DNA of 62,718 bases, filler included, from an uncultured Thermoplasmatales archaeon (GTDB lineage Archaea; Thermoplasmatota; E2; DHVEG-1), in NCBI GenBank assembly GCA_964517155.1. It is 8 parts of 8 records of this genome, joined end to end, with 100 filler letters (N's around TTAATTAATTAA, not from the genome) between each part and the next. Parts side by side here need not be neighbours in the genome. Positions count along the whole stretch, not along the records: positions 41,629 to 46,155 come from CAZFAZ010000066.1; 7 more parts are not named here. One strand, 5' to 3'. Under the pieces are notes generated by a model. It ran no database searches. It was not told the origin of the DNA and was given only the letters and a program-made list of their open reading frames with translations. This document shows, piece by piece, positions 6,251 to 54,485 of the stretch (positions are counted from its first letter, which is position 1; the number at the start of each line of letters is the position of its first letter). The position numbers and the translations under genes are program-made.

Positions 6251-6350
6251 NNNNNNNNNNNNNNNNNNNNNNNNNNNNNNNNNNNNNNNNNNNNTTAATT
6301 AATTAANNNNNNNNNNNNNNNNNNNNNNNNNNNNNNNNNNNNNNNNNNNN
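6251..6350. other. Artificial contig linker (same linker at 23249-23348, 37180-37279, 41529-41628, 46156-46255, 50887-50986, 54386-54485)
   Basis: N44-TTAATTAATTAA-N44, giving stops in all six frames. Confidence 0.99.
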
Positions 6351-23246: not shown

Positions 23247-23348
23247 AANNNNNNNNNNNNNNNNNNNNNNNNNNNNNNNNNNNNNNNNNNNNTTAATTAA
23301 TTAANNNNNNNNNNNNNNNNNNNNNNNNNNNNNNNNNNNNNNNNNNNN

Positions 23349-37179: not shown

Positions 37180-37279
37180 NNNNNNNNNNNNNNNNNNNNN
37201 NNNNNNNNNNNNNNNNNNNNNNNTTAATTAATTAANNNNNNNNNNNNNNNNNNNNNNNNNNNNNNNNNNNNNNNNNNNN

Positions 37280-39982: not shown

Positions 39983-41263
39983 CTAAGAAACATAAAATGA
40001 GGTGCTTTTACTAGCACTAAGAGATGTTCTACGATCATATAAATCAATATCTGCTTTGTAAATCTTAGAATTTTCCCAAACATTTGAATCAAGCTCAAAC
40101 CACCACATCTGAGAATTATTTCCAACAGTTGTTTTATTAATACTAGAATAATAATATTTTTTATTAGATGATGTAACATTTAAAACTAAGATTATATCAC
40201 ATATAGTATTATCATCAGTAGTAGCAATCTCAGTATATTCTAAATAAACAAAAACAGTATCATTAATATTAAAAATAGAATTAGCAGTATAAACCCTATA
40301 AGCTGAAACAGAACTTGCAGTTGTAAATATATTTATTTTTGGTATTTTTTCATACAACGTAAAATAAGTTTCATCACTTGCAGTTAAACCAGATATTTCA
40401 TCTTTTAAAATAAAGACAACTCTGTAATTACCTAAAGGCCATGAATACTTAGTTACAAAATCGCAATTATTTACAATTTCCTGAGAAGAATTAACATAAA
40501 AACTGTAACTATCTACCAAATTTTGTTCATGATATAAATTAACCTTGCCTGAAAACTTATAAGTAATATTCTCTGTGATATTTTCATATTCAAAATTAAT
40601 ACTTATCTTATCACCTAATCCAAGAGCATAATCAGAAACAGATAAACTTAGTATTCTTGGAGGATCATATACAATATCAGATGTATCTAGTAATACAAAG
40701 AAAAATAAACACAAAAATAGAATTATGCCAACGACAGCAGGTATAGCAATCTTAACAATTTTTTTCTTGTTATTTTTCTTAGGGATATCTTGTACAGGTT
40801 TTTTTATAATAGGTTTTTGTACAGGTGTTACTTGTTTTTTTTCTTCAGAAGGAGTCTTTACCCATCGATACGATTTAACAACTTCATCAATTTTATTTTC
40901 AAAAATCTTTAAACTATTTGGAATAAGTGTATCATCATCATAATGAATAACAGTTTTTGTTTTTATCTCGCCTTGCAATCCTTGTATTTCAACAGTAATT
41001 TTAGTAAAAGAGCGATTTAATCCTTCATCAATGCTGTATTTTTGATTTATAGAAAAAAGTTTAGATGATTTTAATTCTTCTAAAATTAAAATAACATCAT
41101 CTTCACTAATGAAAGTTTCAATTTTACTTTTTATTTTGACGTTATTTAAACCTTCATAAACAATTTTTCTATCATCATAGATAGTTATATTATATTCTGG
41201 TTTTTCAAATCCACCCTTTCTATATAATATAATTTTAATTGAATTATTATTCATAATAATCAA
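39983..41263 (-). CDS. Bitopic membrane protein: N-terminal DUF6438-like domain, TM, extracellular beta domains
   Basis: R.G....P.Y.ITIY.D.....G...V pattern; central TM; many NxS/T sequons. Confidence 0.65.
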   Translation of the reverse strand: MIIMNNNSIKIILYRKGGFEKPEYNITIYDDRKIVYEGLNNVKIKSKIETFISEDDVILILEELKSSKLFSINQKYSIDEGLNRSFTKITVEIQGLQGEIKTKTVIHYDDDTLIPNSLKIFENKIDEVVKSYRWVKTPSEEKKQVTPVQKPIIKKPVQDIPKKNNKKKIVKIAIPAVVGIILFLCLFFFVLLDTSDIVYDPPRILSLSVSDYALGLGDKISINFEYENITENITYKFSGKVNLYHEQNLVDSYSFYVNSSQEIVNNCDFVTKYSWPLGNYRVVFILKDEISGLTASDETYFTLYEKIPKINIFTTASSVSAYRVYTANSIFNINDTVFVYLEYTEIATTDDNTICDIILVLNVTSSNKKYYYSSINKTTVGNNSQMWWFELDSNVWENSKIYKADIDLYDRRTSLSASKSTSFYVS

Positions 41264-41528: not shown

Positions 41529-41628
41529 NNNNNNNNNNNNNNNNNNNNNNNNNNNNNNNNNNNNNNNNNNNNTTAATTAATTAANNNNNNNNNNNNNNNN
41601 NNNNNNNNNNNNNNNNNNNNNNNNNNNN

Positions 41629-43105
41629 ATTCGTTTCTAAGGTTTATTACGTTTTGTTCTTTTTCTAAGAGAATGTTTTTGTTTTGTTCAAGTTCTGTTA
41701 TGTTTTCTTGGAAATCTTTTCTTAATATTTCTATTGTATTATTTTTTTCATTAATTGCTTCTTTAATATTTTTAAGCTCATTGTCTTTTTTGGTAAGCTC
41801 GGTTGTTTTTTCATCAAGTTTTTCTGCAATTTCTTTTATTTTCTCCTGTTGATTATTTAATATTTCTTCTTTTAAATCAATAGCATTTAGCTTGTCAGAA
41901 AGCTGTTTTTTCAAATCTTTTAAATCCTTTGTTTTTGTATTTAATTCTTTTTGAAATTCTTTGATTTGAGTGTTTCTGGTGTTTATTTCCTCAGTTTTGT
42001 CATCAAGTACTTTTTTTAGTTTTTCCAAAGATAGTTCTTTTAATTTTATTTCTTCTTTTGCATCTTCAAGCTCAATTTGTTTTTCTTGTATTTCTTTTTC
42101 AAGATTGAGTACTTTTTTGTTGTTATCAGAAGAGTTTTTCTGATTTTGAGCAACTTGTTTTTTAAGATCATCAATTATTTTGTTTTTACTTTCAAAATCT
42201 TCATGAAGCGCTTTTATTTCTTCATCTTTTTTTACAAGCTCTTCTCTTATTTTTTCTAGTTCTTTTTCTTTTGATTTAACTTCTTTTTCTTGTTCAGAAA
42301 AACTTTGTTTTTCTCTTTGAATATTTTTTTGTATTTTTTCAATTTCAAAGTTTTTATCGTTTAATTCAGAGCTGTTTTTTCTTAATTCTTCTCTGAGATT
42401 TTCTATTTCTTGCTCTCTTTGATGAAGTCTATCTTTTATTTTTTCAATTTCATTTTCAAGAGTATTTATCTCTTTTATTCTACTGTTTATTTCTCTTTCT
42501 TTTTCACTGAGTTCTTTATTTACAAAATCAAAGTTTCTTTGCTGCAAGTCAAATTCTTTTTCTTTTTTTTCTATTAAGCTTTTTATGCTTTGCAATTCTT
42601 GATCTTTTTCTTTTAATTTTTGAAAGGAGTATGTTGCCTCTTCGTTTCCCATTCTTTCTTTTCTAAATTCTTTTTTTGTTCTTTTATCAAACGATGATGC
42701 TTCTTTGTTCATAGTTGTATTTTTAACAAGGTTTATTTCTCCTGTAAATCTACTGTTTTTAATCAATGGTTTTGTATCAATTTCAAATGTTTCTAAGTCT
42801 CCTTTTTTGTTTATCAAATCAATTGTGTAAAAAGGACTTTGTTTTCCTATGAGACGTGATACATGTCTATAGCGTAGTTCTTTTTTTGAGTCATCTGTGA
42901 TAAAACCTAAATCAGTTATGTTTCTGCCGATTAACTCTTTTGTTTTAAACCCTGTTTTTTTACAAAATGCATCATTTACATCGGTAAGCTCGCCGTTTCG
43001 ATTTACAACAAAAACAGGGTAATTGCTATCAAGATAAGCAGATAAAGTCTTAATATCTGTTTCAAATGCGTTATCATCCTTTTTTTTATTAGAACTATAT
43101 TTCAT
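41629..43105 (-). CDS. PAS domain + very long coiled-coil protein (3' truncated)
   Basis: VN.AFC..TG....ELIG PAS motif, then more than 300 aa of K/E heptads; GGGGTGAGG SD before ATG 43105. Confidence 0.85.
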
Positions 43106-43225
43106 ACTATTCAGCCTCACCCCAGCGTATGTTGGGAAACAAACTACCTAATTTTTAAATAAATAATATCCTTTATTTAATTATTGATAATGCTTTAAAG
43201 TAATATTAATCTTTTTTAATTTTCT

Positions 43226-44362
43226 TTATTTTTCAATAAGTCTGTCAACTGCTATTTTCAGCTCTTGATATTCTGATTCTAGCTGCTCAAATTGATTTTT
43301 AAGTGCAAAATATTTGTCTTTGTAATAGGCATCTGTTTCTTTTACCATGTTGTTTTCTAGTTTTAATTCTTTTTGCAATGGTGAAGATTCAAGTATTTTT
43401 TCATAAAAAGTGTTTTTAATGTTTAAATCAGTTTTATTTCTGTTTTTTCCTATTTTTTGAATGATGTTTTCTTTTCCAAGCAAGCCAAAGGATGTATTAT
43501 CTAGGCGTTTAATTAAATCTTTACATTTATTTATATTTATATCAAGGATGTTTACTTTTCTTCTATGTTTAAGCACATCTTCTGAAAATTCTCTGCGGTC
43601 TATATCTTTGATAAGTCTTTTTTCAGTAAGATCCATTAAATCATCTTTAAGCGCAAGTCTTTGACGCTCTAAAACACCTAGTCTATTTGTAAGTAGTTCT
43701 CGAAGGGATTTTGCATCATCGATATAGTTTACCATTTCATCATCATGCTTTACAAAAATATCGTATAACTCTTCATTTGAAACCTCATCATCTGATATTA
43801 ATGCAGTAAGCTCAGGTGATATTTTATCTTTAAATTCTAGTTTTTCAATTATTTTAACTGAGTTTGTATACCATCCAGGTATGAAAATAACACCCTCGTT
43901 TGTATAATCAAACTGCTCTAGTGGAAAACTAAGGACAGCATCAGATTTTTCGTCTTTTATTTTAAAACCAACAATATTTTTGTCTTTATCATAAATTGTA
44001 TCAAAAACAAAACCTAGTTTTTCTCCAGTATCCTCAAGATATACAGGTTTGTTTTTCAAATCTTTTTTAATAAATGTTTTCTTTTTTTCTTTTGAAAACT
44101 CTTTTTTCTCAATTGGTTCTTGAGTATTAATTGTTTCTTTTTGAAAATCTTCTATGTCAACCTCATTTAAAACAGCGGTTTGAGCTATATCTGTTTTTAC
44201 TTGTTGTTTTTTATCTATTTTTTCTTTATTTTTACGGCCTAAACCTAGTTTTCTTTTCTTTTTTACAGTAAGATGTTTTTGATTATTATAAACCTCTTTT
44301 GAGCTCAAATTATTTTTTATTTGTTTTTTTGAACCCTTATCTTTTTTCTTAAATAGAGGCAT
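43226..44362 (-). CDS. CdvA-like protein (PRC-barrel + helical coiled coil)
   Basis: K.VY..DTGE.LG.V.D..D PRC motif followed by IFIPGW and about 125 aa helical region ending RLD. Confidence 0.7.
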   Translation of the reverse strand: MPLFKKKDKGSKKQIKNNLSSKEVYNNQKHLTVKKKRKLGLGRKNKEKIDKKQQVKTDIAQTAVLNEVDIEDFQKETINTQEPIEKKEFSKEKKKTFIKKDLKNKPVYLEDTGEKLGFVFDTIYDKDKNIVGFKIKDEKSDAVLSFPLEQFDYTNEGVIFIPGWYTNSVKIIEKLEFKDKISPELTALISDDEVSNEELYDIFVKHDDEMVNYIDDAKSLRELLTNRLGVLERQRLALKDDLMDLTEKRLIKDIDRREFSEDVLKHRRKVNILDININKCKDLIKRLDNTSFGLLGKENIIQKIGKNRNKTDLNIKNTFYEKILESSPLQKELKLENNMVKETDAYYKDKYFALKNQFEQLESEYQELKIAVDRLIEK

Positions 44363-44388
44363 CCTTATCCAACTCCTGCTGATAATCT

Positions 44389-46131
44389 TTACAGATCACA
44401 GCTTCCCTCCAATGAAAGTAATGGGTCTTTCTGTTCTTTAACATTTCGGATGAAACGCGTAGTTGCCCAGGAGATAGCTGCGAATGGTACTAACAATAAA
44501 GATAATATCAGGATATAAACACCTATAGCTCCTATTAATAATGATAATATTTGCATCATATCTGTTTGCTGCTCAAATATTATAAGATTTAATTGTATCA
44601 GTGTATATACTATGCTTGTAATCATAATTATAAATGTAGTTAAAACAATTTTTTTTCTTAATTTACAGCTGATAAAATATGCTATAATTCCTCCTAAAAG
44701 TATAGCTACTAGCATAGCTGAGAAAGGATCATTTATAATGAAAAGAATTGGAAGTAGCACCAATGATGCTATAATTGGTTTTCCATAGTTTGTAAAAAAT
44801 GTTTCTTTTCCTTCTGATTTTGTATAATTTATATTAAGAATCCAGCCCATGCTGTTGCTTACTGTTTTTTTGATTTTGCCTTTTAGTGAGATTACTTTTT
44901 TTACATGTTTTTTCTTAATTATTGTTTTTGAATAATGTCGCCATGATCTATCAATTGCCAGTGTACTTAGGTTATCTGATATAAAAGTTATTCCAATTAA
45001 AAGTAAAAGCGTTAGTGTTGTAAGTATTGCAGCTGAAAATAAATCTAGTAAATATACTGTTGCTTCTGCATTCCACGCAAGCAGGTTTTGTATAAAAGAA
45101 TCAGAAAATAAAAGCCAGAATGGTGAAGAATAAACCATTATTTTTCCGGTATATGTTCCATTAGCAGTTATATTTGAGGCATAGGCTTTTAATTTCATTG
45201 AATTAACTTTGCCTCTACTTAAATTAAAAACATTTTTTGAAACATGTTCATTTATTTCACCTTGTGCAAAAACTATTCCTTTGACAGGCATTGTACTAGG
45301 GTTTATTATCTCCAGGTTTTTTGGAAATGATTCAGTACCTGTTCTTATCCTTCCAAAGTTAATAGCTACTGCTTTTTCGCTTTCAGCATTTATTCCAACA
45401 GATGCTGTTTGTGAATCAAAGGCAAAAGCATGTATAACTGTTAAAAAAACAATATATATTACAAGAAATGAAATTGCTGTTTTTTTAAGGTTAAGTGGCT
45501 TACGACCAAATATATAAAGCCTTATTTTTTCTTTGAAAGTTTTTGCATGCTCAGGTATTATAAACATGAGTGCTACAAGGATTACAGCAGATATTGTAAG
45601 CGGTGCAAAAACTCCAAGATAACTTATTGATTCTTTTGCACTTGTTGGCTGTGATACAGCTTCGAGTCCTTGGTTTATCCAAAGGCCTATTATTCCAACA
45701 AATGGTACTTTTAGAGGTGTTTGTCCTATTGATATTACTTTTCCCATTAATGCATCTTGTCTTATGTATGGCTCTGGTATATGTGGTCCTGCCTGATCTG
45801 TAAAATCGTTTTTATCTCCTTTTGTCTCAAGTAAAATATTTCCGCTGCGAGATTGTGTAATGTCTGATACTCTATGAACTACTATTTTTTGATCTGGCCA
45901 ACGTATATGGCTTTTAAAGACAATTATATCTCCAACTTTTATATCTTCTATTCTTGTAGGTGTCCATGCAACGACATCTCCTTCAAAAAGAGTAGGCGTC
46001 ATTGAATCAGATGTAACAAGATTTATTGGGAATGGTGTTCCAGACCATACTGATAGGAAACGCGCTATTATCAGAAATAAAGCTGCAATAAATAATAGGT
46101 TACCTACCAGTGATTTAACACTTAGTTTAAT
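44389..46131 (-). CDS. Signal peptidase I (SEC11/SipW-type) fused to beta-sandwich and multi-TM domains
   Basis: TSDSMTP, GDIIVF, VHRV, TKGD.N...D; catalytic Ser lies upstream of the track's ATG 46002, so true start is near 46131-46138. Confidence 0.88.
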   Translation of the reverse strand: MKLSVKSLVGNLLFIAALFLIIARFLSVWSGTPFPINLVTSDSMTPTLFEGDVVAWTPTRIEDIKVGDIIVFKSHIRWPDQKIVVHRVSDITQSRSGNILLETKGDKNDFTDQAGPHIPEPYIRQDALMGKVISIGQTPLKVPFVGIIGLWINQGLEAVSQPTSAKESISYLGVFAPLTISAVILVALMFIIPEHAKTFKEKIRLYIFGRKPLNLKKTAISFLVIYIVFLTVIHAFAFDSQTASVGINAESEKAVAINFGRIRTGTESFPKNLEIINPSTMPVKGIVFAQGEINEHVSKNVFNLSRGKVNSMKLKAYASNITANGTYTGKIMVYSSPFWLLFSDSFIQNLLAWNAEATVYLLDLFSAAILTTLTLLLLIGITFISDNLSTLAIDRSWRHYSKTIIKKKHVKKVISLKGKIKKTVSNSMGWILNINYTKSEGKETFFTNYGKPIIASLVLLPILFIINDPFSAMLVAILLGGIIAYFISCKLRKKIVLTTFIIMITSIVYTLIQLNLIIFEQQTDMMQILSLLIGAIGVYILILSLLLVPFAAISWATTRFIRNVKEQKDPLLSLEGSCDL

Positions 46132-46255
46132 TTTTCATCCCATCCCAATGTACAANNNNNNNNNNNNNNNNNNNNNNNNNNNNNNNNNNNNNNNNNNNNT
46201 TAATTAATTAANNNNNNNNNNNNNNNNNNNNNNNNNNNNNNNNNNNNNNNNNNNN

Positions 46256-46356: not shown

Positions 46357-47493
46357 TTATTGTCTTTGAATGCGTATAACCCTGCTTAGACGATAGCTTA
46401 TAATTACCATTATAAACTCTTTCTCAAAAAACATTTTATCAAGATTTTTATCTCCTGTGTCTATTCGGATTACAGGAGTTGCTGCAAGTTTACTTGGTGT
46501 TGAAATAACAAGTATGTTATCAATTCCAATCCTGCGGATAACCTGTGGGCTTAGCTGAAGATTGCCCCGGCCTAGAATAAAACCCTGTGCACCAATCGGA
46601 CTTAGAATAACTTTTGCTTTTGGGTATTTATCTAAAAGCTTTAGAATTTTTTTTTCGTTTAAATCAGATTCAATGATTTTTCCATTATAATAAGCATCAA
46701 TTCCAAGCAATGTGTTTTCTAAACCAAGATTCTTTGATATATAATCTATAGTTCCACCAGGTCCAAATAAATATAAAAAACCAGGGTTTTCTTTTAATTC
46801 ATCTTCAATATGTTCGGCAAGTTCATCTTTTACAGCATCATCTGTTACAGATTCAAAAACACTTTTACCTACTTGAACATAAGTTGGCTCAACGATACCT
46901 TTTGCAATACCAAATAACTTGATGTTCCATTCACCTTTTCGGTAGAGCTCTTCATCAAGATCCATTATTTCTGCATCACCTATAGTAAGGTGTTTGTTTA
47001 CAAATTCATGCAGCATTTTTGCACTAGCTGAGGTATTTACTCCAAAAACTGCACTGTGCATTTTTACGCCCGAAGGAATTCCAAGCATAGGAATTTTATC
47101 ACCGATGATACTGTAAATATCTCTTGCTGTTCCATCGCCGCCACAAAATAAGATTAATTCTATATTTTTTTCTAGTAATTTTTTACAGGCTTCTTTAGTA
47201 TCATCAGAGTTAGTTTTATTTTTATTATAATTGTATACAACTGTAATTTTTTTTGCACCTGCGTCTATAAGCTCGTCATATCCCATAACATCAGAGCAAG
47301 TAAACCACTCTATTTCATCGCTCTGAGAGTAACTAGATATAAACTCTTCAAGTGTTTCAAGTGCTTTATCAGGTGCTACAGGTTTTGCTCCAAGCCTTTT
47401 TGCTTTATCTGAGACCCTGTCAGTACCTTTTAAACCGACTTTGCCACCCATACCTGCAATAGGATTTACCAGGAAACCTATCTTTGAAATCAT
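46357..47493 (-). CDS. ATP-NAD kinase-family protein (COG3199-like)
   Basis: NPIAGMGG.VGLKGTD, GGDGTARD, GIPSGVKM.S, QGF.LGRGN.Q, DTGD. Confidence 0.88.
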   Translation of the reverse strand: MISKIGFLVNPIAGMGGKVGLKGTDRVSDKAKRLGAKPVAPDKALETLEEFISSYSQSDEIEWFTCSDVMGYDELIDAGAKKITVVYNYNKNKTNSDDTKEACKKLLEKNIELILFCGGDGTARDIYSIIGDKIPMLGIPSGVKMHSAVFGVNTSASAKMLHEFVNKHLTIGDAEIMDLDEELYRKGEWNIKLFGIAKGIVEPTYVQVGKSVFESVTDDAVKDELAEHIEDELKENPGFLYLFGPGGTIDYISKNLGLENTLLGIDAYYNGKIIESDLNEKKILKLLDKYPKAKVILSPIGAQGFILGRGNLQLSPQVIRRIGIDNILVISTPSKLAATPVIRIDTGDKNLDKMFFEKEFIMVIISYRLSRVIRIQRQ

Positions 47494-50886: not shown

Positions 50887-50986
50887 NNNNNNNNNNNNNN
50901 NNNNNNNNNNNNNNNNNNNNNNNNNNNNNNTTAATTAATTAANNNNNNNNNNNNNNNNNNNNNNNNNNNNNNNNNNNNNNNNNNNN

Positions 50987-54385: not shown

Positions 54386-54485
54386 NNNNNNNNNNNNNNN
54401 NNNNNNNNNNNNNNNNNNNNNNNNNNNNNTTAATTAATTAANNNNNNNNNNNNNNNNNNNNNNNNNNNNNNNNNNNNNNNNNNNN

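Follow-up and report, generated by a model that had tools for sequence, protein, structure and literature searches.

The locus and its genes

The DNA examined here, referred to as the window, is a 62,718-base stretch from the metagenome-assembled genome (MAG) of an uncultured Thermoplasmatales archaeon of sediments, and its subject is a minus-strand gene whose 378-residue product resembles CdvA, which has so far been regarded as an archaea-specific initiator of division rings of ESCRT-III and taken to be diagnostic for TACK systems. The gene lies directly behind that of a large, polytopic signal peptidase and is followed by the 5' part of a gene for a giant protein of PAS domains and coiled coil. 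The source MAG (G000) comprises 1.585 Mb in 91 contigs, with a completeness of 90.8% and a contamination of 0.51%, and the window consists of eight of its contigs joined by spacers of N44, a 12-mer and N44, located at 6251-6350, 23249-23348, 37180-37279, 41529-41628, 46156-46255, 50887-50986 and 54386-54485. Gene neighborhoods across these spacers are artificial, and open reading frames (ORFs) run through them, as is evident from the run of X in the ORF at 41573-43120. The three genes of interest, all on the minus strand, make up contig C66 (window 41629-46155). As this contig is only 4,527 bases long, adjacency on it says little, and the whole genome was therefore searched for cdvB and cdvC partners. 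The features are as follows, in the direction of reading, with coordinates along the window and the evidence in brackets.

44389..46131, minus strand: signal peptidase I of the Sec11/SipW type (about eight transmembrane (TM) helices, extracytoplasmic beta-sandwich, conserved cytoplasmic tail)
44392..44463, minus strand: last 24 residues of the peptidase, the predicted cytoplasmic tail ...RNVKEQKDPLLSLEGSCDL (conservation)
44363..44388, minus strand: spacer of 26 nt between the peptidase and CdvA-like genes
43226..44362, minus strand: CdvA-like gene, 378 residues, stop codon at 43226-43228 (ORF and homology to CdvA)
44066..44362, minus strand: residues 1-99, disordered Lys-rich tail (predicted local distance difference test (pLDDT) below 50 at residues 7-98; composition)
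43877..44065, minus strand: residues 100-162, PRC barrel (strands at 106-160, Foldseek, VIA-align, Pfam PRC in relatives)
43481..43876, minus strand: residues 163-294, CdvA-type helical (coiled-coil) domain (alignment to CdvA; PF18822 in relatives)
43325..43480, minus strand: residues 295-346, variable linker (low pLDDT at 305-327; alignment variability)
43229..43324, minus strand: residues 347-378, conserved C-terminal amphipathic helix (standing in place of the CdvA E3B peptide)
41629..43120, minus strand: giant PAS and coiled-coil gene, 5' part (PAS at E 7e-9; cut by the contig end)

The first-pass annotation had described a basic N-terminal tail, a PRC barrel, the motif IFIPGW and a helical region, and composition together with the AlphaFold2 model bears out each of these. 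Residues 1-99 contain 29 lysine and arginine against 14 aspartate and glutamate residues, with an isoelectric point (pI) of 10, and their region carries a mid-tail motif, KKKxK[IL]G[FL][RK]. The N-terminus itself follows the pattern M-x-[LIF]-[FL]-[KNR]-[KRN] in all 23 family members that were aligned, two of which have their start called 1-6 residues upstream. In the model, strands occupy residues 106-160 and helices residues 163-288 and 329-377, the latter at pLDDT 86-90; IFIPGW corresponds to residues 159-164, and the range of 44065-43499 previously given for the helical region equals residues 100-288, in agreement with the ORF. The most conserved stretch of the helical domain is DLTEKRLIKDIDRREFSED. 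No TM segment was predicted in the protein, which is of the cytoplasmic type, like CdvA.

The family is conserved in its center. The core (residues 100-296) could be aligned without gaps in 24 loci, in which it is 64-83% identical to the window protein, and 297 relatives at E<=1e-3 were found among 8000 candidates scored. A Pfam scan of the window protein gave nothing but noise at E<=1, and Pfam PRC was unmatched at E<=0.01; on the 23 aligned members, PRC was recognized in 16 and PF18822, the CdvA coiled coil, in eight. Public records name the relatives 'hypothetical protein', 'PAS domain S-box protein' or 'zinc ribbon domain-containing protein'.

Homology to CdvA

Comparison with CdvA models, which had been suggested as a check, gave concordant matches by three routes. 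The NCBIfam model for CdvA, NF041007, aligns residues 113-293 with profile positions 20-201 of 235 at E 1.3e-6, the score being 28 bits for the protein and 30 bits in a six-frame search, below the equivalog cut-off of 350 bits. With phmmer against all PDB sequences, the sole match is CdvA of S. islandicus (9s9g; E 1.7e-6, residues 112-294 with 20-203 of 238). When a core profile of 25 sequences was aligned by hhalign with 11 crenarchaeal CdvA proteins (Fervidicoccaceae plus one other), the alignment spanned 178 columns of both barrel and helices at a probability of 97.6 and E 4.2e-12. The same core profile retrieved 100 proteins at E<=1e-3 from 1.84 billion representative proteins, including the crenarchaeal CdvA proteins P0210 (E 5.7e-7) and P0220 (E 7.2e-4), to which the CdvA model gives 187 and 216 bits, respectively. 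Since the match extends from the barrel into the helical domain, it is more than a generic PRC match, and, as judged from these alignments, the 378-residue protein is truly, if distantly, related to CdvA in both barrel and helices and belongs to the CdvA superfamily. The claim that the part from P-x-W to the final RLD aligns with CdvA without gaps is nearly right: in the phmmer alignment, CdvA has two small insertions of three residues in total.

Structure searches point the same way for the first part of the core. In the PDB, the best Foldseek matches to the AlphaFold2 model are the chains of CdvA filaments, at E 1.5e-6 and a root mean square deviation (rmsd) of ~42 A, the latter a consequence of the single long helix in the monomer model. 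They are followed by plain PRC barrels (1pm3, 8onw, 8qzo), among them CdpB1/CdpB2. VIA-align superposes residues 95-180 of the model on 9s9i_B with Z 8.7 and an rmsd of 3.5 A over 82 residues; its list is dominated by generic long coiled coils, such as PI3K p85, SMC and Rad50, with Z of 8-10.5, and is uninformative for the helical part.

CdvA (NF041007, arCOG04054; PF18822 and PRC; 9S9G/9S9H/9S9I) and the window protein thus have in common an N-terminal PRC barrel and, behind it, one and the same type of helical domain, about 180 residues altogether, at an identity of 18-27%. The window protein differs in its extra basic tail of 99 residues and in its C-terminus, a conserved helix, where CdvA has the E3B peptide that binds the winged helix of CdvB; no counterpart of the E3B peptide or of its linker was found, the full-length profile alignment stopping at residue 297 of 378 and at position 208 of 241 in CdvA. 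It also differs in its genomic setting, with a signal peptidase as partner and with no cdvB or cdvC detected in the genome. The haloarchaeal proteins CdpB1/2/3 (8QZO, 8ONW) share the PRC barrel fold with it, but they are single barrels of ~100 residues that are recruited by SepF, whereas the window protein has 378 residues with coiled coil and tails.

A maximum-likelihood tree of 76 cores divides the sequences in two. The 11 crenarchaeal CdvA proteins and P0207 are split by a long branch (support 95/97) from 64 Thermoplasmatota-type rows, and the latter fall into a long-tailed clade of 33, with the window protein and PKD forms, and a clade of 31 with short N-termini, including PAS fusions. As the TACK sample is narrow and the position of the root unknown, this tree shows separation and not direction. 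Taken as a whole, the window protein belongs to a new and conserved subfamily of CdvA relatives, whose functional context is also new, and is not a CdvA orthologue in function.

CdvA-like proteins outside the cdv operon have been described before, namely arCOG03733/03734 of Thermoproteales, the C-terminus of Halo_FHA (arCOG13166) and proteins of Bathyarchaeia (Makarova et al. 2024, PMC10936438). The present family resembles them in the reuse of a CdvA-type domain away from CdvABC and differs in its hosts, theirs being Thermoproteales, Halobacteriales (with Vps4 and ESCRT-III) and Bathyarchaeia. According to the same work, the Thermoplasmata systems consist of Vps4, ESCRT-III and arCOG07400, and the passages that describe them include no CdvA-like protein or peptidase partner. 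CdvA is treated there as diagnostic of the TACK clade, in view of which the earlier statement that CdvA recruits ESCRT-III in TACK/Asgard archaea was loosely worded. In the passages of Zhao et al. 2023 (PMC10120694) on PRC-barrel proteins, CdvA is placed among these and Thermoplasmata are unmentioned. Our search of the literature, covering titles, abstracts and main-text passages, retrieved no description of a CdvA homologue in Thermoplasmatota.

Distribution and division machinery of the hosts

The assignment of the gene to Thermoplasmatota, made at first sight of the sequence, holds. A scan with one genome per species yielded 25 loci with a CdvA-like gene of the window's type, all in MAGs recorded as Thermoplasmata, Thermoplasmatales or Thermoplasmatota, except for two labelled Methanobacteriota, and on contigs of up to 174 kb, some of them exceeding 100 kb. 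In an even sample of 401 Thermoplasmatota genomes, the CdvA-like core was present in 41 at E<=1e-5: in 21 of the 53 other genomes of the GTDB family of the window genome (hereafter f1), in 7/14 and 10/12 genomes of its sister families f3 and f6, and in 1/1 and 1/4 genomes of two other families, f17 and f29. Outside these five families, the 401 genomes gave no match. In a search of sequencing runs by sampled words, two DNA runs contained a fraction of 0.97 of the words, and no RNA run was listed.

These data dispose of the explanation that a TACK or Asgard contig carrying an ordinary cdvA was mis-binned, to which only the small size of the 4,527-base contig lends some color. The orthologues recur in the 25 MAG records and in the other f1 genomes just mentioned; the rest of the downstream PAS gene is found on another contig of the same bin (C46); and the family is set apart from the sampled crenarchaeal CdvA proteins both by the supported long branch and by a score of 28 bits on NF041007 against 350. 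Mis-binning is refuted, and we attach practically no probability to it.

The hosts are, as had been stated, FtsZ dividers. FtsZ was detected in 392 of the 401 genomes, including 53/53 of f1, 14/14 of f3 and 12/12 of f6, and the genome-wide search proposed earlier found SepF in G000 together with two FtsZ genes and two small PRC-barrel genes, whose open frames comprise 112 and 86 residues. Neither cdvB nor cdvC lies beside the CdvA-like gene on its contig, and in G000, which is 90.8% complete, Snf7, Vps4_C and MIT had no match. The only match of the CdvC model in this genome was a Cdc48-like double AAA protein, with 207 bits (cut-off 650) and with the N-terminal part missing. Across the phylum, Snf7 was matched in 13 of 401 genomes, ten of which belong to a further family, f37, and in 0/14 genomes of f3 and 0/12 of f6. 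The two matches among the 53 of f1 are both sub-cut-off (G361, 21.8 bits; G388, 18.8 bits), and only G388 has the CdvA-like gene. The Pfam Snf7 model is weak on archaeal CdvB, a Sulfolobus control ringing below cut-off, so that a very divergent ESCRT-III protein could escape these counts. One of the two small PRC-barrel genes of G000 directly adjoins the gene of the Cdc48-like double-AAA ATPase (C42:42609-44485), a pairing reported to be frequent in archaea (Zhao et al., PMC10120694).

It is conceivable that the protein serves the FtsZ/SepF divisome as an accessory, its barrel docking on SepF or on small CdpB-like PRC proteins, its coiled coil acting as a ring scaffold and the peptidase remodeling the septal envelope. 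Both division systems of archaea make use of PRC-barrel proteins (PMC10120694), a scaffold role at the division ring is known for CdvA (PMC12818579), the FtsZ1/2, SepF and small PRC proteins that such a role would call upon are all encoded in G000, and the f6 operon runs into the gene for the large subunit of DNA polymerase D (PolD). However, a gene present in 41 of 401 genomes, against 392 for FtsZ, cannot be a general part of the divisome, and in the loci read it never stands beside ftsZ or sepF, its invariable companions being the peptidase and PAS domains. An accessory role in the divisome is regarded as unlikely.

The signal peptidase partner

The gene upstream encodes, as had been noted, a multi-TM signal peptidase ending 26 nt (44363-44388) before the CdvA-like gene. 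Its product matches TIGR02228 with 58.7 bits, or 80.5 bits when the N-terminal part is included, and its structural model (pLDDT 71) has human SEC11A as the top Foldseek match (E 4.8e-4), with nothing clear beyond SEC11. The order of its parts is TM1, peptidase domain, TM2-TM3, a beta-sandwich (195-293), TM4, a Lys-rich loop of ~65 residues, TM5-TM8 and the tail; TM1 lies in the N-terminal extension, and in the model the sandwich is placed between helices 172-193 and 301-355. From the number of TM segments and the helices of the model, the peptidase domain and the sandwich would be outside and the Lys-rich loop and the tail inside the cell. All 25 peptidase sequences inspected retain the catalytic serine (S-M), the histidine (VVHRV) and GD.N..D. 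At an overall identity of ~30%, the final CD[LI] of the tail and the preceding RE..DP are likewise kept, distant families included.

The start of this gene deserves comment. A start at the first ATG (46002) would leave the protein without TM1 and the catalytic serine, both of which are encoded in frame upstream, the latter as SDSM, and the frame is open up to a TGA at 46137-46135, with no ATG, GTG or TTG in between. The same situation exists in 15 of 22 f1 loci (21 loci and the window), where GGATGA or AGGTGAT, resembling a Shine-Dalgarno motif, is followed within a few bases by a conserved ATT, ATA or ATC. In the window, this codon is ATT at 46131-46129, and a non-AUG start at this position is probable from the conservation of the arrangement. 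A programmed frameshift was considered as well and set aside in favor of the ATT/ATA/ATC start behind the Shine-Dalgarno-like motif. Public gene calls for the peptidase comprise versions of ~531-537 and of 553-589 residues.

The large peptidase is not the sole signal peptidase I of its genome, a possibility ruled out by a second, weakly scoring ORF elsewhere in G000, which encodes an ordinary signal peptidase I of 295 residues with SGSM, HR and GDN motifs. As the ordinary enzyme exists separately, the large one is seen as a specialized paralogue. Its closest analogue in layout is TafD, the dedicated peptidase of haloarchaeal Tat-fimbriae, in which four TM helices are combined with a peptidase domain at the N-terminus and an Ig-like outer domain at the C-terminus (PMC11821415); Sec-type homologues of TafD are present in Thermococcales and Archaeoglobales (PMC11821415, PMC12337348). 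The window peptidase shows this layout in its first half, with four TM helices, a Ser/His peptidase domain and an Ig-like domain; what it adds to TafD are four TM helices, the Lys-rich cytoplasmic loop and the conserved cytoplasmic tail. Small exported proteins are often encoded alongside both, and the descriptions of TafD systems in PMC11821415 and PMC12337348 include no CdvA-like partner. Pfam applied to the membrane part of the peptidase found no DUF5305 (TafG) and no other credible family, and in a search of this region for short TafD-like homologues, only close orthologues of 467-589 residues were seen in the best 120 of 191 matches.

A two-gene module

The coupling of the CdvA-like gene to a signal peptidase, first proposed from the window alone, is conserved across three GTDB families. 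In all 22 of the 25 f1-type loci that include upstream DNA, the peptidase gene is directly upstream on the same strand, which answers the question of operon conservation raised at the outset, and it is equally so in the six f3/f6 loci fetched, in which the two genes overlap by 4 bases. Co-occurrence is near strict. A profile of the peptidase membrane part (residues 151-537) matched 37 of the 401 genomes at E<1e-30, and 36 of the 37 also possess the CdvA-like core; in the remaining one, G167, which has no CdvA-like core, the match sits at a contig end. Five of the 401 genomes have only a weaker CdvA-like match, and the three of these that were fetched (L039, L040, L042) turned out to be paralogues of other architecture. 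A prediction of the complex between the last 30 residues of the peptidase and the CdvA-like core scored 0.03 against a mark of 0.32 and is uninformative either way.

PAS proteins and other architectures

The third constant element is the PAS domain. In all 25 f1-type loci, the next gene downstream starts with a PAS domain that is followed by coiled coil. In G000, this gene continues at C46:143-5116, with 47% identity to the L004 protein, and encodes more than 2,100 residues in total; its relatives have 976-2413 residues and two or three PAS domains, and no output domain is recognized in them. In f3 and f6, the CdvA core is instead fused to PAS and HisKA in proteins of 397-413 residues with no HATPase_c match, followed by a gene for a receiver of 129 residues. 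The gene order in L032, L033, L035 and L036 is two small exported proteins, peptidase, core-PAS-HisKA, receiver and the large subunit of DNA polymerase D, where Pfam was run on the proteins of L032 and L036, and those of L033 and L035 were placed by gene order and sizes, L033 showing no separate 129-residue receiver. A protein with DHp only beside a receiver suggests a phosphotransfer node, as far as domain content can tell, and a response regulator with a winged helix-turn-helix (wHTH) domain is encoded near L032.

On these grounds, the family might be thought of primarily as a signaling scaffold, in which the dimerized coiled coil keeps either a PAS-HisKA/receiver phosphorelay or, in f1, the giant PAS protein at the membrane, with the peptidase as sensor or input. 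The fusions to PAS and HisKA with a receiver behind them, the PAS protein downstream in 25/25 f1 loci and the wHTH response regulator near L032 would all fit. Against this, the peptidase keeps all its catalytic residues and is therefore not a dead sensor, the window CdvA-like protein has neither PAS nor HisKA, and the PAS domains of the giant proteins and those fused to the core in the sister families are only generically similar (E 0.02). A system whose main purpose is signaling appears quite unlikely to us.

Other relatives are tied to the membrane, in the order signal/TM, PKD domains, TM and core, or as a core followed by a zinc ribbon and a C-terminal TM anchor. Odd fusions of the core, found among P0172, P0166/P0174/P0184, P0163 and P0145, involve a DnaA-type ATPase, PKD-TM, a C-terminal TM anchor and zinc ribbons. 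The fusion with the DnaA-type ATPase (TIGR00362, 359 bits) is known from one metagenomic representative and is possibly chimeric.

The tail and some of these arrangements call to mind a tether between nucleoid and membrane, the Lys-rich tail binding DNA, as reported for the filaments of Metallosphaera CdvA. The pI of the tail is 10, reports exist of CdvA filaments stabilized by DNA (PMC12818579) and of fusions between CdvA-like domains and Cren7-type DNA binders (PMC5906684), and PolD adjacency in f6 and the fusion to a DnaA-like ATPase could be quoted in addition. However, the f3 and f6 forms are partnered with the same peptidase although they lack the tail, the DnaA fusion is represented by one metagenomic protein only, and domain scans detected no DNA-binding domain. 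Such a tether is very improbable.

Exported neighbors and a possible fiber context

Genes for small exported proteins accompany the module in part of its range. Two families of ~220-residue exported proteins are encoded just upstream in all six f3/f6 loci, and the family with the ...ATQYA signal peptide also occurs upstream in two f1 loci (L014, L025). These proteins are candidate substrates of the peptidase and no more than candidates. Their signal peptides end in ...ATQYA[RV] or ...[IL]L[YH]A[RE] (C68:5171-5887; L014:5342-6031; L036:4790-6202), and a 741-residue DUF2341 protein and a 455-residue protein beside the peptidase have a similar post-signal motif. The motifs suggest a shared recognition tag for a dedicated peptidase, by their resemblance in sequence. 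No Pfam or NCBIfam family was recognized in the small exported neighbors, and in the ESM Atlas they match unnamed archaeal clusters only, plus DUF1102 at 0.92.

An archaeal flagellin/pilin-like gene of ~208 residues (PF01917 at E 6e-11; NF006325 at 60 bits) is found at C46:5134-5763 on the minus strand. In 16 loci of the window's type (L004:16197-16823 and 15 others, L043 included), the giant PAS gene ends facing a gene of this kind in convergent orientation.

Proposed role of the CdvA-like protein

The first-pass annotation had inferred a repurposed CdvA-based module for membrane scaffolding or division. The membrane scaffold is the better half of this inference, because the constant partners are a fiber-type peptidase and PAS domains, and nothing seen ties the gene to cell division. 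We propose that the CdvA-like protein serves a TafD-like fiber peptidase as its scaffold or adaptor on the cytoplasmic side, the two genes forming a membrane module, and that it does not recruit ESCRT; we judge the chances of this proposal to be about even. It builds on the homology and domain order, the lack of detected ESCRT genes, the co-occurrence and adjacency with the peptidase and the association with PAS domains, from which physical binding, polymerization, membrane attachment and a fiber-related role are inferred.

The protein would sit under the membrane, held by the cytoplasmic loop and/or tail of the peptidase, or by its own hydrophobic-basic N-terminus and Lys-rich tail, or both. 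Short hydrophobic-basic N-terminal motifs anchor ESCRT-III proteins, and M-x-[LIF]-[FL]-[KNR]-[KRN] is of this kind. N-terminal amphipathic helices are carried by CdvB paralogues (PMC12818579). Self-association could occur through the CdvA-type coiled coil, and the C-terminal helix or the core may couple the peptidase to PAS-domain proteins, in f1 to the giant PAS/coiled-coil protein. In the sister families, the coupling would take the form of PAS-HisKA fused to the CdvA core with a receiver gene next to it. The outcome might be that the maturation of exported surface or fiber proteins is positioned or regulated.

Several observations weigh against this proposal, some on the side of structure and others on that of the genomes. 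The AlphaFold2 monomer has a mean pLDDT of only 60.4 and draws residues 208-288 as one long helix, with no three-helix bundle. The structural comparison envisaged earlier placed CdvA chains first in Foldseek, but the rigid-body fit of VIA-align to CdvA is good only for the barrel and the first helix. The protofilament of S. islandicus CdvA is held by six hydrophobic residues, A90, L94, I100, I149, M153 and I156 (PMC12818579). In the phmmer alignment, these contacts map to E184, L188, V194, M243, E247 and L250, of which four are hydrophobic and two are invariant or near-invariant acidic residues, the register being uncertain at ~19% identity. Polymerization of the 378-residue protein in the manner of CdvA is accordingly uncertain. 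Among the genomes, G307, which belongs to the same genus as the window genome and is 88% complete, shows neither the CdvA-like gene nor the peptidase, and in G010 the two genes are on different contigs. In G000 itself, the homologue of the exported proteins lies elsewhere (on C68), and the exported neighbors had no match to a solved pilin or other PDB entry by single sequence or profile.

A wider reading, which we consider doubtful, is that the CdvA fold is older than its role with ESCRT and represents a general membrane-proximal polymer able to dock on polytopic membrane proteins, which in the present FtsZ dividers would make up a cytoskeletal platform clustering a fiber-maturing peptidase and switching it through PAS domains and a phosphorelay. 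If this were true, ESCRT-III recruitment in TACK archaea would have been added to a CdvA-fold platform later, by co-option, and no cytoplasmic scaffold would have been known before the present protein for a surface fiber of the strand-donation (Taf/TasA-like) type.

Apart from these possibilities, a conserved CdvA homologue in FtsZ/SepF archaea in which no ESCRT was detected separates the CdvA scaffold from ESCRT and bears on the evolutionary assembly of the Cdv system. It also opens another setting in which the binding partners of the PRC barrel and of the coiled coil can be tested, and it points to a cytoplasmic control of the maturation of archaeal surface fibers, no such component being described in the accounts of these fibers in PMC11821415 and PMC12337348.

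Genes on adjoining contigs of the window

Two further minus-strand genes flank contig C66 in the window as a result of the joining of contigs and bear no relation to the CdvA-like gene. One, at 39983-41263, encodes a DUF6438 protein with a TM segment, and the other, at 46357-47493, encodes an ATP-NAD kinase-like protein.

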